Assembly: GCA_029261035.1 (NCBI GenBank)
Contig: JAJDCD010000008.1
Span: forward strand, 230,882 to 294,881
From: Candidatus Omnitrophota bacterium
GTDB lineage: Bacteria; Omnitrophota; Omnitrophia; Omnitrophales; JACROU01
DNA: 64,000 bases
Reading direction: 5' to 3'
Part shown: positions 9,657-63,484 of the stretch, one piece after another
Numbering within the stretch: position 1 is the stretch's first letter
Layout of the letters: every line of letters starts with the position of its first letter
Translations under genes and position numbers: made by a program
The notes under the pieces: model-generated
Database searches by the model: none
Told to the model about the DNA's origin: nothing
What the model saw: only the letters and a program-made list of their open reading frames with translations

Positions 9657-10892
9657 TTACTTTGCGTCAAATATTTCTTTAGAGAACTGCTTTTCGCTTT
9701 TCGCTACAACGCAACTTATGGTCGCATCCCCTGTCACATTAACCGCGGTTCTCATCATATCCAACAATCGATCTACTCCGATAATAAGACCAATACCTTC
9801 AACAGGCAATCCTACTTGATTTAAAACTAAGGCCAACATAATAAGCCCCACACCTGGGACCCCTGCTGTTCCAATCGAAGCAAGCACTGCTGTCAGAACA
9901 ACCATTAGAAAATCAACAGCATCCAATCCAACACCATACGCTTGAGCAATAAATACAGTTGCAACCCCTTGCATAATTGCGGTTCCATCCATATTAATCG
10001 TAGCGCCTAAAGGCAAGGTGAATGACGCAATCGAATTCTTAACACCTAACTTATGTTCACAAGTTTCCAAATTAACCGGAAGTGTTGCATTACTACTAGC
10101 AGTACTAAAAGCAAATAAAATAACATTCCTAAAGTTTCTAAAGAAAACAAGAGGATTTAAACCGCATAAAAATTTTAAAATCAAAGGATAAACAAGGGTT
10201 ATATGCATAAGCAAAACAAGAGTAACAACAAAAAAGTACTTAGATAAAGGAGCAATAGCATCTAAACCCTGCTTAGCAAACACTTGTGCTATCAAGCAAA
10301 AAACACCATAAGGTGCTAATTCCATAATAATTAAAACCATCTTCATAATCACTTCATTCGCAGATTGAAAGAGTTGAAGTACAGGCTTCCCTTTTTCACC
10401 AACTAAGGTTAAGGCCAAGCCGAAAAGGATGGAAAAAACAATAATCTGAAGCATATTCCCTTCAACCATTGCTTTAATAGGATTAGAAGGAAATATATTA
10501 ATAAAAGTTTGTGCTAACGTTGGGGCCTCTTTCATCTGAAAAGAAGTTTCACTCATCAAATTAAAACCAACTCCGGGCTGTATTATTAAAGCCATCAAAA
10601 GAGCCAGACTAATAGCTATAGCAGTTGTTAATATGTACAATCCAAAAGATTTTCCACCGACACGTCCTAACTTCCGAACATCATCCAAAGCAGCCGTACC
10701 ACAAACCAAAGATACAAACACCAGAGGAACAACCAAGAGTTTAAGCAAAGCTAAAAAAACCTTCCCAACAACATGAAAAAATTCATCCACAAAAAAAGAA
10801 GAGAACGCTCCATCAATTCCATTCAGATTAAACGTAACCCCTGTCACAAGCCCTAAAAACATACCCAACAAAATCTTCATGGTTAAACTCAT
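9657..10892 (-). CDS. Dicarboxylate/amino acid:cation symporter (DAACS family)
   Basis: 411 aa multi-TM protein with GltP-like motifs (GTAAL, ATINMDGTA). Confidence 0.8.
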   Translation of the reverse strand: MSLTMKILLGMFLGLVTGVTFNLNGIDGAFSSFFVDEFFHVVGKVFLALLKLLVVPLVFVSLVCGTAALDDVRKLGRVGGKSFGLYILTTAIAISLALLMALIIQPGVGFNLMSETSFQMKEAPTLAQTFINIFPSNPIKAMVEGNMLQIIVFSILFGLALTLVGEKGKPVLQLFQSANEVIMKMVLIIMELAPYGVFCLIAQVFAKQGLDAIAPLSKYFFVVTLVLLMHITLVYPLILKFLCGLNPLVFFRNFRNVILFAFSTASSNATLPVNLETCEHKLGVKNSIASFTLPLGATINMDGTAIMQGVATVFIAQAYGVGLDAVDFLMVVLTAVLASIGTAGVPGVGLIMLALVLNQVGLPVEGIGLIIGVDRLLDMMRTAVNVTGDATISCVVAKSEKQFSKEIFDAK

Positions 10893-54757: not shown

Positions 54758-54854
54758 TAGAATCCCTCAAATTAAAAATAAAATTGATTATACAAAAAAA
54801 AACCCCAAACATCACTGTTTAGGGTACGTTTAAACTGAAATAAGATAATTAAGT

Positions 54855-54930
54855 TGGTGGGAAGGAACGGAATCGAACCGCCGACACAGGGATTTTCAGT
54901 CCCTTGCTCTACCGACTGAGCTACCTTCCC
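54855..54930 (-). tRNA. tRNA-Phe (anticodon GAA)
   Basis: Acceptor GGGAAGG/CCUUCCC, anticodon stem AGGGA/UCCCU with loop CUGAAAA, T loop UUCGAUU, discriminator A plus encoded CCA. Confidence 0.85.
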
Positions 54931-55169
54931 AACCAAAAATGTCCATCCTAATACAAAACAAGCCTTCATACTAAAGAAATTTTTAAATTTCACAGCGAAG
55001 GAGGGTACCGACGCTTTAGGCTACGATGGTAGGGATACCAAGTGCCGAATCAATGCCATGGATGGCATGTTTTATTTCGGCCCTTCCCAACCAAAAACAC
55101 AGCATTTTATGGATGAGTAGGTAGAAAGTCAATGGGAAACATATATTCTACGCTTTAGATTAATTTAAT

Positions 55170-56141
55170 TTACAATGTTTTCCAGTGATTCCATAGGATT
55201 TTAAGATATTGAGGTATCGTGGTCGTAGGCACTTCTTTGGGTAAAGGAATTTCGGTAACATCACGAAGATTAATTTGAGGATAGGCATGATGAAAGTAGT
55301 GAGACCTGGAGTCATTATGATTAATCATATTCCAAATACGATTACTCCAGTGAGTGTTGGGCAAGCTTCGGGTCTTCAAAATTCTATTTTTTAAATTATC
55401 TTTTGGATGCAAAACTCCTAAATGTTCTATCCACTGATCCTGACGTGTGACAACGGCTCCCACCCATATAGATAAAACATACACAAAAATTGCAGGCACT
55501 CCTGCTCCTGGATATAAAAATTCTACCGAATAACAAACAACAAGCAACATCACAATTCGAATCACAACGCTCATAAACTGTTTCCAAAAAGAAAATTGAG
55601 GCGACTTAATAAAACGTGCCATAAAGTTAATCTCCCACGCTGCATTTCCAAAAAATAGTTCGAATAAAAATTGAGCTTTCCTTTTAAAAGAATTTTTAGA
55701 ATAATCCTTACAAAAAAACTCCAAGTCTCCTTCTGTGTGCAAATGGCGGTGATGAGTCGTATGTGCAAAATTTATAATTTTAGGGTTTGAAAAAAGCATA
55801 TTAGACACCATATTAAAAAAGAATCGATTTGGAACTATGGGAATATAGTTATGCCATAACTCATGTCGTAAATATCCTAGCCATGAAACTATAAAAGGAG
55901 GAAAAACAATAATAGCAGCTAATGCTGCTGAAATAGAATGAGTCCAAAGAACAGATACAGATAATAAGTAAAAAAACCAAAGGAAAATGGCGAGAAAAAG
56001 ATCGGCAACGGAACTCAAAGAAGCGTTCCTAATAGAGTCCGCATGTAGCCGCACTTCTTTATCCATTTCAACATTCCCTGTTGAATTCAAATTGTAGGCA
56101 CTATCCATGAGGCCATGGGTTCCGAACATCCAGATCACCAC
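55170..56141 (-). CDS. Membrane fatty-acid desaturase family protein
   Basis: Three His boxes (HELWH; HTTHHRHLH; HNDSRSHYFHHAYP) in a polytopic membrane protein; 323 aa. Confidence 0.75.
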   Translation of the reverse strand: MVIWMFGTHGLMDSAYNLNSTGNVEMDKEVRLHADSIRNASLSSVADLFLAIFLWFFYLLSVSVLWTHSISAALAAIIVFPPFIVSWLGYLRHELWHNYIPIVPNRFFFNMVSNMLFSNPKIINFAHTTHHRHLHTEGDLEFFCKDYSKNSFKRKAQFLFELFFGNAAWEINFMARFIKSPQFSFWKQFMSVVIRIVMLLVVCYSVEFLYPGAGVPAIFVYVLSIWVGAVVTRQDQWIEHLGVLHPKDNLKNRILKTRSLPNTHWSNRIWNMINHNDSRSHYFHHAYPQINLRDVTEIPLPKEVPTTTIPQYLKILWNHWKTL

Positions 56142-56217
56142 CTCTCAACGAAAAAATACCTTCATTTAGAATTATACCTGATTTACAGAAATTGGAAGGG
56201 GCATAGGACTAGTTCGA

Positions 56218-57717
56218 TTAGGATTGTTGTTTAAAATGCTGGTATTTTAAAGGAATATTGAAGAATCTAATTTTTTCTGTTTTTGAAGACATTCCAAAAA
56301 AACGGATCAAAACTACCAGAAATAAAACAATCACCTCTGAAGCAAGTAAAAACCAAAAAGTAGAAAGGGTGTCCGCTTTTACCCCCTCCCAAACAAGTAA
56401 AAAGATAATACTAGGCCATAATATAAACATTAAAAAATAAGCCGCCTGATCAAGCCTCTGCTTGATACCAACATTTGCAGTCATATTTCTAAACGCCAAT
56501 TTTATACGAGAAATCCAACTAAAAAGAATAGCTTTCACACCCAAAATTCCTCTTAACAACAAGCTAGGCTCTAAATTTTTCTTTTCAGCAACATATTCAT
56601 AAAGAAGTTCTTTATTCCCTAATTCAAATAAATTGATTTTGGAATCTTCTTTTTTAACTGACTGAATAGCAATCGTCTTAGGAATCAAACTAATAACATG
56701 CTGATTTTGCATCCATTCATCCAATCGATAAACAGAGTCTCCCCTAAATAAGGTTTGTTGTAATCTGTTGGACTGAAAAAATGTCCAGAGAGGGTTACTC
56801 TTATCTGTTTTCACTAATCCATAAACGCATCCATTCTTATCTTTTTCTTTAAGCCATAAATAAGCTAAATGTGACAACGCATAATCATAAAGAATAGAGG
56901 TTTCGTGCATAAAGAGAACTAATGGATAACGAGCTAATTTTAGAAATAATTTTAAGAAATGTTCAGAATTTTCTTTTTGTGAATAAACAATCAAAATTCT
57001 TTTTTTTCCTTCAACTTCCAAAATCTCACAAGGTTCTTCCGTTTGAAGGTCTGAAAAATATAAAGGGGAACGATATCGTAACTTATATTCATCCAGGGCA
57101 ATCGCATCTAAATCTTTTTGATCCAAATCTCTAAAAACAATTAATTCCCACTCATGGTAATCTATACGATCCATTTCCTTAACCCTAGAAACTAAATCAA
57201 TTGTTTTTAGATCTAAAGAATTCAAATACAAAGATACTGGTGGCGCCAACGCACTTTCAGCTACTTTCTTCTTAGAAAACAATTCGTCCTCATCCCTCTT
57301 TTTCATTAACAAGAAAAATATTCGAATTAGAGAAACAGCACGCCACAAAATGCTCATCATCAACAATAGAATTATTCCCATAATAAAATTATGAATATGA
57401 GATGTTTTAAAAAAGTTGCCACGAACTTCACCCTCTCTCTTCAAAGGCCTGCCTCTTCCTGAATCACTTAAGCTGTTTACTTTTAAATCAGCCTTAGACG
57501 CAGGCGCACCTACAAGGTTTTCTGTTTCTTTCTTAAACTCTTCAAGGAAAACCTTTTCCTCTACGAGAGGACTTATAGTTTTTGTTGGAGTTTGTGCTGG
57601 TTGTGTCGAAGTTCTCACTCTTACAGAATTTTGAGAAGCACAAGAATAGAGTAGTAGCACTAAAAAAAGAGAAAGCCCTATGTTTAACATAATCTTAGAA
57701 AATGATTGTTTAATCAT
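56218..57717 (-). CDS. Hypothetical lipoprotein/membrane protein
   Basis: Signal peptide with lipobox-like LLYSC, internal TM segments near residues 120-140 and C-terminus; no recognisable catalytic motifs. Confidence 0.3.
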   Translation of the reverse strand: MIKQSFSKIMLNIGLSLFLVLLLYSCASQNSVRVRTSTQPAQTPTKTISPLVEEKVFLEEFKKETENLVGAPASKADLKVNSLSDSGRGRPLKREGEVRGNFFKTSHIHNFIMGIILLLMMSILWRAVSLIRIFFLLMKKRDEDELFSKKKVAESALAPPVSLYLNSLDLKTIDLVSRVKEMDRIDYHEWELIVFRDLDQKDLDAIALDEYKLRYRSPLYFSDLQTEEPCEILEVEGKKRILIVYSQKENSEHFLKLFLKLARYPLVLFMHETSILYDYALSHLAYLWLKEKDKNGCVYGLVKTDKSNPLWTFFQSNRLQQTLFRGDSVYRLDEWMQNQHVISLIPKTIAIQSVKKEDSKINLFELGNKELLYEYVAEKKNLEPSLLLRGILGVKAILFSWISRIKLAFRNMTANVGIKQRLDQAAYFLMFILWPSIIFLLVWEGVKADTLSTFWFLLASEVIVLFLVVLIRFFGMSSKTEKIRFFNIPLKYQHFKQQS

Positions 57718-58849
57718 GATGTGCCCGATCTAAATCTTCAAAAATTGGAAAAACTAAATGATGATTCTCATCCAATATTTCACGAACGGCTCTTTTCCCT
57801 TCCAAGCCAAGCTCCATCAAGGTTTCTAAAGCTCTATAACGCACCCAAGGATGTAAATGCGTTACCAACTCTTTTATCTCAGGAGTAAAACGCTTCAACT
57901 TAAGACTTCCTATCATTTGTAACACACGAGCCAGTTCCGGCCAAGAAGCTGTTTTGAATTTCGCTTCAATGGCATTTTCAATAAATTTTTTACATTGAAC
58001 TTCCACGCGAGACGAAGAAGTGTTTTTTTTAGGGGCCACCAACTTACCCCCGCTTTTCTCAGTGGAAGAAAGATCAATAATCGCTTTCATGGCTTTCATT
58101 CTTACTTCTAAAATAGGATCTTCAATTAAAGGTGTCACACAAAGTAAAAAGTCTTTTTGCTTAAGTTGTGACATTATTCCAAGCGCTAAGATCCTAATGT
58201 TCGATTCCGGGTTTTGAAGAGTTTCTTCTAAGGACAACACCCCCTCCTTCCCCAAACTCTGTAAATCGGGTTGTAGTTGAATTAAATCAAAAGCACCGTC
58301 TCCTCGAATGCTTTCAAGCACCAACTCAATACTAGTCTCATCTTTAAGTTGCAACAAAGCAAAAGCGCTCGCCCATCGCACTTTATCTGAAGAGTCTTTT
58401 AATAAAATTTTTAGCTGAGAAACTGCTTCAACATATTGAAAAGCAGCAAAAACAAGGCTTGCTCTGATACGTTTTTTATCATTATTTGATTTAAGATATT
58501 TAAAATTCTGTTCTGGATATCGTAGAGATTCCCACAAAAATTGAATTTTTTCTTTGATTGCTTTTGAATTTGAAAAATTAATTAGTCTTTCTAAAAGAAG
58601 ATCCTCAACACACCTTTTTAAATAACGACTTTTTTGTTTTAACCATGGAAGCGATTTTTTTCTAGCGTTTGAATGTAAAAAATTATCTAAATCGTAAGCG
58701 TACTTCTTTTCAACTTTTTGATGATACATATATTTAAGTTGCGCAAAAAGATAAGACGTAGACATGAAAAAAAACAGAGTAATAACCAGTGAAGAAATTA
58801 GCAAAAACAAGAGTTGAGCAAATCCTAGAACAAATGTATCCATAAGCAA
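57710..58849 (-). CDS. HEAT-repeat protein with N-terminal membrane anchor
   Basis: Repeated PBS-lyase/HEAT-like units (DKVRWASAFALLQL; DPILEVRMKAMKAI; HPWVRYRALETLMELG); N-terminal hydrophobic helix. Confidence 0.5.
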   Translation of the reverse strand: MLMDTFVLGFAQLLFLLISSLVITLFFFMSTSYLFAQLKYMYHQKVEKKYAYDLDNFLHSNARKKSLPWLKQKSRYLKRCVEDLLLERLINFSNSKAIKEKIQFLWESLRYPEQNFKYLKSNNDKKRIRASLVFAAFQYVEAVSQLKILLKDSSDKVRWASAFALLQLKDETSIELVLESIRGDGAFDLIQLQPDLQSLGKEGVLSLEETLQNPESNIRILALGIMSQLKQKDFLLCVTPLIEDPILEVRMKAMKAIIDLSSTEKSGGKLVAPKKNTSSSRVEVQCKKFIENAIEAKFKTASWPELARVLQMIGSLKLKRFTPEIKELVTHLHPWVRYRALETLMELGLEGKRAVREILDENHHLVFPIFEDLDRAHHD

Positions 58850-58850
58850 T

Positions 58851-59165
58851 CTAGTCCGACCCTCCTCCTAACAGCTCATAAGCTTGGGACTTGCCTGTCC
58901 ATTTTTTATAATCATCATAATCTATAAAAATAAGATCAGGTCTCTTATCTGCAATTCTTCCCGCCCATCGATAACGATCCTTGGACCTTGACGCAATATA
59001 CTTGAAAGGCACTCCACATTCAGGACAATTTTTATGTTTTTCGTAAGACAAACCTAATGCTTTACAAGAAGAACAATCACCTGATGAGTCTCCAACAATT
59101 AACAATGAAGATTTAATTTCATCTAGAGGCAACGACTTCCAAACACGAATGCTAAATTTTTTCAT
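58851..59165 (-). CDS. Hypothetical small protein with putative zinc ribbon
   Basis: 104 aa with CxxC (CSSC) and CPEC pairs; tightly packed between HEAT protein and channel gene. Confidence 0.3.
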   Translation of the reverse strand: MKKFSIRVWKSLPLDEIKSSLLIVGDSSGDCSSCKALGLSYEKHKNCPECGVPFKYIASRSKDRYRWAGRIADKRPDLIFIDYDDYKKWTGKSQAYELLGGGSD

Positions 59166-59179
59166 AAACCCTCCTTATT

Positions 59180-60085
59180 CTACCTCATCATTTTACGGCC
59201 AAAAACTAAAACGAAAAGCGCCATCATAAAAGCTCCAATAAAAGCCTCCACCCCAGCAAATATTTTACTAATTCCAAGAGGTGTAATATCTCCATAGCCT
59301 AATGTCGTCAAAGTAACCACACTATAGTATATGCATAGCCCCAGATCTTTAATAGAATCTACTATAGGCTGATTCGGCTGATAACGTAATATTTCATTTC
59401 CATATTTAATCCCACACAGATAAAAAACAATTCCGTTAAAAATAACAAATAAAGCTGCGCTACTAATAACTCTAGCTGTTTTTTCACCATAACCACACAA
59501 AACATCTGTGATTTTAGAACTCAGGCGCTTATAAGAAAATAAAGGTTGCTGCTTTCTCCTCATAACCATTTCTCGATAAAATAGATCTGCAGCCTCGTCA
59601 AAAATACCTAGCTCTGTCAAACGAACTCTTAAAACACGATAGATCTCTTCTGCTTCTCTGTATTTTTCTTTCGCTTCTAATTTAAACCCTTTTCCATCCA
59701 AAGCTTTTGCTTCTTGCTCATTGGCTATAATTCCTTTTGAGCCATATTTAAGGCCTGCTAACTTAGCCCCTTCCAATTTAACTTCCAATAAATTAGCCCC
59801 TTGAAAATCTGCCTCTTTAATATTAGAAAATTTTAAATTAGCATTAAACAAATTAGATCCTTGGAAGTTAGCTTTGTATAAATGCGCATGCTCCAAATTG
59901 GCTCGCTCCAAATTACAGTTTTTCAAATTTGCTTCGACAAGACTTACTTCTTTAAGATCGGCTCGGGACAAATCAACCCCTTCTAAATTAGCTCCATCTA
60001 AAGGCTTCCCATTCTTAACCGCCATAATAACGTCTTCGCGAGTTAGCTTCTTCCCCAAACCTTTCATTCCCAGATCTTTACCCAT
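59180..60085 (-). CDS. Pentapeptide-repeat protein fused to a 2-TM potassium-channel pore domain
   Basis: N-terminal tandem pentapeptide repeats (ANLEG, ADLKE, ANLKN, ANLEH, ANFQG...) and C-terminal TM1-pore-TM2 with K+ selectivity filter TLTTLGYGD. Confidence 0.7.
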   Translation of the reverse strand: MGKDLGMKGLGKKLTREDVIMAVKNGKPLDGANLEGVDLSRADLKEVSLVEANLKNCNLERANLEHAHLYKANFQGSNLFNANLKFSNIKEADFQGANLLEVKLEGAKLAGLKYGSKGIIANEQEAKALDGKGFKLEAKEKYREAEEIYRVLRVRLTELGIFDEAADLFYREMVMRRKQQPLFSYKRLSSKITDVLCGYGEKTARVISSAALFVIFNGIVFYLCGIKYGNEILRYQPNQPIVDSIKDLGLCIYYSVVTLTTLGYGDITPLGISKIFAGVEAFIGAFMMALFVLVFGRKMMR

Positions 60086-60238
60086 ATAAAACTCCTTTAT
60101 ATAAGAAGTATACCTGATACATCTTTGTGCTTAATATTATCGGTAAATTCCCTCCCTAAGTTAAATGAAGCCGTTGCAATCCCCTCTTTAGACTTACCCC
60201 TAAATACGCTATACTACCCTCTTAAACAAAGGATGTTT

Positions 60239-63333: not shown

Positions 63334-63410
63334 GGGGGCGTAGCTCAACTGGTTAGAGTACCTGACTGTCGATCAGGATGTTGCGGGTTCGAGTCCCGTC
63401 GCTCCCGCCA
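63334..63410 (+). tRNA. tRNA-Asp (anticodon GTC)
   Basis: Acceptor GGGGGCG/CGCUCCC, D arm GCUC-AACUGGUUA-GAGU, anticodon stem CCUGA/UCAGG with loop CUGUCGA, T arm GCGGG-UUCGAGU-CCCGU, encoded CCA. Confidence 0.85.
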
Positions 63411-63428
63411 TATTTAGAACATAAAAAA

Positions 63429-63456
63429 GGCCATCCACATAGGATGGCTTTTTTTA
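63429..63456 (+). terminator. Rho-independent terminator after tRNA-Asp
   Basis: Stem GCCATCC (63430-63436) / GGATGGC (63442-63448), 5-nt loop, then T7; A-tract upstream makes it potentially bidirectional. Confidence 0.7.
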
Positions 63457-63465
63457 TGTCTAAAT

Positions 63466-63484
63466 GGGAGCGACGGGACTCGAA
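63466..63484. repeat. Exact inverted copy of the tRNA-Asp 3' end (19 bp)
   Basis: GGGAGCGACGGGACTCGAA is the reverse complement of tRNA-Asp positions 63388-63406 (TTCGAGTCCCGTCGCTCCC), 60 bp downstream of the tRNA. Confidence 0.8.

Follow-up and report, generated by a model that had tools for sequence, protein, structure and literature searches.

A four-gene Omnitrophota locus encoding a pentapeptide-repeat K+ channel, a zinc-ribbon protein, a HEAT-repeat protein and a glycosyltransferase-like lipoprotein

A stretch of 64,000 nucleotides from a Candidatus Omnitrophota bacterium (contig JAJDCD010000008.1, positions 230,882 to 294,881; hereafter the window) carries four closely packed genes, called A to D, that encode a K+ channel with two transmembrane (TM) segments and pentapeptide repeats, a soluble zinc-ribbon protein, a membrane-anchored HEAT-repeat protein and a membrane lipoprotein related to family 2 glycosyltransferases (GT2). 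The explanation towards which we lean is that the locus is a lineage-restricted mosaic, probably transcribed as one unit, in which three modules with separate evolutionary histories (an autonomous K+ channel, a general zinc-ribbon protein and a clade-specific C-D membrane pair) would have been joined into a four-gene unit. Gene A would be a new member of a known, unstudied architecture, and in the C-D pair a HEAT protein would be the partner of a GT2-derived pseudoenzyme bearing a lipoprotein extension. An earlier sequence-only reading had taken the co-organization of the four genes as the sign of a membrane signalling or transport complex; overall, its interpretation is partly supported by the present analysis.

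Organization and distribution of the four genes

Four consecutive open reading frames (ORFs) on the minus strand fill positions 56218-60085, with the boundaries that the sequence-only reading had given them.

59180-60085, minus strand: gene A, two-TM K+ channel, 301 amino acids
58851-59165, minus strand: gene B, soluble zinc-ribbon protein, 104 amino acids
57710-58849, minus strand: gene C, TM-anchored HEAT-repeat protein, 379 amino acids (Pfam HEAT_2, hydropathy)
56218-57717, minus strand: gene D, GT2-like membrane lipoprotein, 499 amino acids
about 60092-60098, minus strand: AAGGAG Shine-Dalgarno sequence of A (sequence)
60136-60164, minus strand: promoter-like site TTAACT-17-GATAAT upstream of A (consensus scan, weak)

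Homologues of A, B, C and D were found elsewhere and this, together with ORFs of 300-500 codons at about 35% G+C, shows that they are real genes and did not arise as chance ORFs. The G+C content of the locus is close to that of its surroundings. Pfam and hydropathy confirmed the features that had been assigned to the four proteins, namely Pentapeptide and Ion_trans_2 domains with a TTLGYGD filter, a double CxxC, an N-terminal TM segment with HEAT_2, and a lipobox, and none of the four belongs to an experimentally characterized family, as had also been said. The operon-like packing described earlier was found as well: 14 nucleotides, with AAGGAGG inside, lie between the stop of A and the ATG of B, a single nucleotide lies between the stop of B and the TTG of C (preceded by GGAGGAGGG, the next ATG being at 7 nucleotides), and C and D overlap by 8 nucleotides (ATGATTAA). 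The common strand, the gaps of at most 14 nucleotides and the single promoter-like site upstream suggest that A-B-C-D are probably co-transcribed. No terminator-like site was met inside the four genes in a consensus scan. Promoter and terminator calls are consensus matches only, and promoter-like sites in the region upstream of A are no more frequent than in shuffled sequence.

The distribution of B argues for a module of its own. Three cysteines of B (C34, C47 and C50) do not vary over 78 sequences and a fourth, C31, is at least 90% conserved; together they make up two CxxC knuckles. The Pfam zinc-ribbon matches of B all stay under the cut-off. The 78 homologues (41-67% identity) are devoid of any Pfam domain. 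In a scan of species-representative genomes, B was found in 44 loci, nearly all from Candidatus Omnitrophota and a few from metagenome-assembled genomes labelled Planctomycetia/Planctomycetales. Hidden Markov models (HMMs) for A, C and D detected none of these genes near B in 42 of the 44 loci, the only two positive ones being L013 and L014. Elsewhere, the neighbours of B are either LOG-like, M20 peptidase and TrpB/TrpA genes, or cold-shock (CSD), GT2 and GGDEF-MshEN genes, or else a histidine kinase gene. The B family spans Omnitrophota, nearly all of which have it in neighbourhoods other than that of the window, and its role is most likely general and independent of the channel. B, which has no Pfam model, may be a core protein or a useful marker of this group.

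In another Omnitrophota genome (L009/L010; 1-4612 and 7818-13697), a B homologue was found with a histidine kinase on one side and giant ORFs, for products of 6141 and at least 1960 amino acids, on the other. Such ORFs are typical of the very long proteins that have been reported for Omnitrophota.

D is present in seven lineages (the window, L002/L062, L004/L011/L012/L060, L005, L006/L014, L013 and L061), all of which keep the order B-C-D. In the five lineages that can be checked, A lies directly upstream of B; L061 is truncated within B, and in L013 the 214 nucleotides upstream of B do not encode a channel C-terminus. The LysS proteins of the D-bearing genomes are 74-80% identical, which makes these genomes close relatives, and about 15 kb of synteny is common to them, with glyoxalase-like, FAD oxidase, SDR, A-B-C-D, desaturase, ROK, M48 and LysS genes. 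Because of this kinship and synteny, the retention of B-C-D adds little evidence of a functional link, and the conservation of the A-B-C-D order does not exceed the background synteny. The cluster was found neither outside the seven close lineages nor with decayed flanks, and both A and B were also found in places where the other genes are missing.

In L002, a 96-nucleotide inverted repeat (2208-2303 and 9675-9770; 92.7% identical) brackets the glyoxalase-like, FAD oxidase, SDR and A-B-C-D genes. No counterpart of this repeat was found flanking the cluster in the window, where only short two-copy matches, maybe due to chance, were observed.

The C-D membrane pair

D had been described earlier as a large lipoprotein. 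The lipobox stands, and the degenerate GT2 glycosyltransferase-like nature of the protein had been overlooked.

57640-57651, minus strand: lipobox L-Y-S-C of D (LLYSC, Cys26; alignment)
56653-57270, minus strand: GT2-like (GT-A fold) domain of D, residues about 150-355, catalytic motifs lost

The elements of D follow one another as a lipoprotein signal, a periplasmic segment, a TM segment, a cytoplasmic GT-A/GT2-like domain and two C-terminal TM segments; the hydropathy profile displays the signal and lipobox, one TM segment, about 280 residues of a soluble domain, and the two C-terminal TM segments. Residues S25-C26-A27 are invariant in five sequences, and the lipobox cysteine is found in six of the seven lineages, L013 being the one that is devoid of it. 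On the strength of its signal peptide and lipobox, D is predicted to be a lipidated bacterial lipoprotein.

No Pfam or NCBIfam family, GT2 models included, matched D at E<=0.1, and scans of B and D against Pfam, NCBIfam, PADLOC and PHROGs gave nothing above threshold. Direct homologues of D are few: five in a first search, seven representatives at E<1e-30 among 1.84 billion, and three loci in the JGI metagenomes. After these, the D profile matched membrane proteins about 450-480 amino acids long (E 3e-10 to 1e-3), which contain Glycos_transf_2, Glyco_tranf_2_3, Glyco_trans_2_3 and Chitin_synth_2 domains and for which the best NCBIfam match is PgaC_IcaA, below the family cut-off. Homology between D and GT2 was found with hhalign (98.8%), and fold matches led to the GT-A fold. 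D resembles the PgaC/IcaA-type enzymes and other processive GT2 synthases embedded in the membrane (hyaluronan synthase, BcsA, chitin synthase) in having a cytoplasmic GT-A domain between TM helices and in the N-terminal motifs PPVSxxL, (D/E)YxExE(L/V)IV and LARYPL. On the contrary, D is devoid of DxD, (T/G)ED and QxxRW, gives no Pfam GT2 match, has only 1 + 2 TM segments and adds a lipoprotein signal and a periplasmic N-terminal segment.

The loss of the catalytic motifs is observed in all seven lineages. At the position aligned with DxD (DAD), the seven lineages carry HET, NES, RDD, HEN, NER, SQE and NKG, the last one, in L061, being without any acidic residue. In the seven-lineage alignment, 'VVxDGS' of GT2 has become 'VFR[D/N/E]' and the C-terminal half of the GT2-like domain is the least conserved part; neither a conserved ED, nor a catalytic acid, nor [QR]xxRW was met in the seven sequences. 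With its motifs lost, no Pfam GT2 match and only three TM helices, D appears as a derived relative rather than a functional member of the processive GT2 synthases. It is a GT2-derived protein that most probably no longer carries out glycosyl transfer. D would have descended from a PgaC/IcaA-type membrane GT2 synthase by loss of DxD, ED, QxxRW and most of the translocation helices and by gain of a lipid-anchored periplasmic N-terminal extension, and its most likely role would be that of an inner-membrane scaffold or sensor devoid of catalytic activity.

It has also to be considered that D is an active, unconventional glycosyltransferase, metal-independent or re-wired, which together with C makes a glycan or glycolipid of the envelope, with a possible link to the desaturase, A and B being bystanders. 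The GT-A fold and the clear homology to processive membrane GT2s are consistent with this proposal, and so are the strongly conserved motifs that D has of its own (ELIVFR, LRYRSPLYFSDL, EILEV.G.RIL.VY and FLKLARYPL), which point to a ligand-binding or catalytic surface. Moreover, the desaturase gene follows D in four of the six assessable lineages (the window, L002, L004/11/12 and L013). Nevertheless, the DxD position is conserved in no form, the NKG of L061 being non-acidic, D has neither a conserved catalytic acid nor QxxRW, and the acceptor-side half of the domain (residues about 290-400) is both the least conserved and the least confidently modelled. Three TM helices are too few for a translocation pore. 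As to the desaturase gene, L005 and L014 lack it, and it seems to be preceded by a promoter-like element of its own. We regard an active enzyme as unlikely.

C was matched by Pfam HEAT_2 (PF13646) with an E-value of 1.1e-17, in three stretches, with 64.5 bits for a cut-off of 27.7. Hydropathy places a single N-terminal TM segment at residues about 10-28, and the HEAT domain is probably cytoplasmic because basic residues follow the N-terminal anchor (positive-inside rule). The repeat type is that of the PBS-lyase-type HEAT proteins (NblB and CpcE; HEAT_2 / HEAT_PBS). Unlike them, C reaches a score of 30 for an equivalog cut-off of 300 bits, is anchored N-terminally in the membrane and comes from a host that is not a cyanobacterium. 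C was always found immediately upstream of D, with ends that overlap or nearly abut, in the seven lineages, and nowhere else among the loci examined. In the mosaic towards which we lean, C and D would be translationally coupled through their overlapping stop and start, and the HEAT solenoid of C would dock onto the cytoplasmic face of D.

The channel and its family

A combines two domains that are both clearly recognized by Pfam, Pentapeptide (3.3e-32; PF00805, 110.1 bits for a cut-off of 20.2) and Ion_trans_2 (3.9e-13; PF07885, 49.5 bits for a cut-off of 22.5).

59741-60010, minus strand: pentapeptide-repeat region of A, residues about 26-115 (Pfam, hydropathy, solved-protein matches)
59288-59314, minus strand: TLTTLGYGD selectivity filter, A residues 258-266 (translation)

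The N-terminal region contains about 17-18 repeats in register and matches solved pentapeptide-repeat proteins by sequence. This cytoplasmic beta-helix is followed by a conserved helical linker (AEEIYR...CGYGE) and then by the pore, in which TM segments 206-224 and 275-293 (hydropathy) flank the filter, VVTLTTLGYGD in its wider context (residues 256-266). In an alignment of 20 diverse members, homology is collinear over the full length. In the filter, residues T261, G263 and G265 never vary, and T258, T260, L262, Y264 and D266 hardly do; in the linker, E146, E147, R150 and C197-G198-Y199-G200-E201 are invariant. The family linker reads AEEIYRN... and FFYREMVMRRKQ, with the C-G-Y-G-E right before TM1, and the C-terminus is short and basic.

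The search for homologues of A returned 2,200 proteins at E<=0.001, and the best 120 of the 2,200 all have PF00805 and PF07885 in about 290-370 amino acids. Among their sources are Litoribacillus, Aliikangiella, Latescibacteria, KSB1, SAR324 and several Gammaproteobacteria, in which they are labelled 'pentapeptide repeat-containing protein' or 'ion channel'. The fusion of pentapeptide repeats with Ion_trans_2 is a widespread architecture found in many phyla and is not particular to the window. A has in common with this family its size (about 300-340 amino acids), domain order, linker, YFSVVTxTTLGYGD and C-terminal ...KKMTR, with 38-61% identity. It differs by the absence of the N-terminal Cys/His knuckle (C...C...CFWH) that the majority of members possess and that, in the 20-member alignment, is also missing from P0100. 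The knuckle varies within the family, and its absence in A is therefore no bar to membership.

Most family members begin with C-x7-9-C ... C-[FY]-[WF]-H, a motif that presumably binds zinc and that is lost in A (59999-60085) and in its closest relative (L002). In parallel, phrog_15350, a PHROG of unknown function, was found to match residues 128-299 of A (59180-59704), that is the linker and the pore, with an E-value of 9.1e-42; from this match it follows that phage genomes encode relatives of the A family.

With KcsA and the MthK pore, A has in common two TM helices around a pore helix and a T-x-G-Y-G-D filter. By contrast, its cytoplasmic module is an N-terminal pentapeptide beta-helix, while theirs is a C-terminal helical bundle or an RCK domain. 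No solved structure that joins pentapeptide repeats with a two-TM pore was found, nor was any experimental or structural study of pentapeptide K+ channels in the literature searched, where only papers on eukaryotic KCTD9 mention both terms; the literature searched on Omnitrophota likewise gave nothing of relevance on HEAT or GT2 proteins. A would be an autonomous, presumably tetrameric channel that conducts K+ through the TTLGYGD filter, with the beta-helix and the CGYGE-ending linker as a likely regulatory or assembly module on the inner gate. That the pentapeptide repeats gate the channel is a conjecture.

Homologues of A at 47-55% identity (L057, L058, L059 and L063) lie in unrelated neighbourhoods, with none of B, C or D beside them, which is consistent with a channel that would work independently of B, C and D. 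The analysis has thus brought to light a large and widespread family, and this family, more than the locus in the window, is worth targeting for how a beta-helical repeat couples to a minimal K+ pore.

In L057 (8001-12937), 63 nucleotides separate the gene of a channel homologue (52% identity) from the next gene, that of a 1295-amino-acid HEAT-repeat protein that bears a signal peptide and appears to be secreted. This protein was considered as a C/D fusion and rejected, as no HMM for A, B, C or D matched it. The adjacency may be a coincidence or a recurrent association.

Readings of the whole locus and neighbouring features

Several observations weigh against the mosaic reading. Adjacency of A to D in all five checkable lineages, short gaps and strong ribosome-binding sites would also fit a true functional operon, and the restriction of C to the clade rests on fetched loci alone, no global search having been made for C. 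In addition, metal-independent GT-A enzymes exist, so that the loss of DxD is no proof of inactivity; many Arg and Lys residues of D are invariant, and the structure model of D is poor outside residues 150-290 (mean predicted local distance difference test score 53.5).

Somewhat less credible than an active D is the proposal that A-B-C-D form one inner-membrane signalling or transport complex, in which the pentapeptide beta-helix is the surface for docking and K+ flux is regulated by B, C and D or in turn regulates them. The common strand, gaps of 1-14 nucleotides, the 8-nucleotide overlap and strong Shine-Dalgarno sequences speak in its favour, as does the order A-B-C-D kept in five lineages despite divergence of C and D to 35-47% identity. 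Three of the four proteins are membrane-bound with large cytoplasmic domains, and the unrelated genome L057 has a HEAT-repeat gene right after its channel homologue. However, A and B are each widespread without the other three, no C-terminus of the channel is encoded in the 214 nucleotides upstream of B in L013, and the SDR, FAD oxidase, desaturase, ROK, M48 and LysS genes are equally conserved, which places the order within the background synteny. Furthermore, the HEAT protein of L057 has no homology with either C or D and bears a signal peptide. Co-organization is therefore a weak sign of a complex: the relatives of A, and B in nearly all of its loci, stand without the partners, and the B-C-D lineages are close and syntenic. 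The four genes are only in part co-conserved, and it is not the case that each falls into a well-characterized unrelated family.

A more elaborate version makes D a pseudo-glycosyltransferase scaffold with a lipid-anchored periplasmic sensor arm within a single A-B-C-D complex, controlling K+ flux through the beta-helix or being controlled by it. It is quite improbable; if true, a nanobacterial phylum would possess a previously undescribed means of linking the state of its envelope to the membrane potential. Finally, that A-B-C-D is an anti-phage defence system or mobile-element cargo, with an ion-channel effector and sensors, is hardly credible: A has the linker and pore module in common with phrog_15350 and C has a weak PADLOC match (HEAT-ARM_XIII, 2.9e-07), but PADLOC matched none of A, B and D, the surroundings are free of integrase, transposase and other mobile genes, and the locus keeps a stable, syntenic position among housekeeping genes, with a G+C content close to theirs. 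A defence-system or prophage origin was rejected in view of the empty scans of B and D.

The value of the mosaic reading is mainly descriptive, in that a previously unannotated protein of 499 amino acids is recognized as a probable GT2-derived pseudoenzyme paired with a HEAT protein in a narrow Omnitrophota lineage. The locus is unlikely to surprise specialists strongly or to open a long-standing question.

Downstream of D, at a distance of 76 nucleotides, lies the desaturase gene.

55170-56141, minus strand: membrane fatty-acid-desaturase-family gene (Pfam FA_desaturase 2.2e-11)

It is preceded by its own TATAAT-like element and is probably a separate unit from A-D. Similar 31-nucleotide sequences (ATCAGGTATAaTTCT...; 74% identical, TATAAT-like box included) occur at 56152-56182 and 60088-60118, just upstream of the desaturase gene and of the channel gene, respectively. 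They may represent a promoter or leader element common to both genes, or may be due to chance.

Elsewhere in the window, a 73-amino-acid ORF at 54772-54993 (minus strand) runs across tRNA-Phe (54855-54930) and is almost certainly not a real gene. In the region 63334-63484, tRNA-Asp ends with 19 nucleotides (63388-63406) of which a perfect inverted copy lies at 63466-63484. A strong hairpin (63419-63459), similar to a bidirectional terminator, is found between the two copies. The arrangement could be the remnant of an integration or a rearrangement at the tRNA gene.

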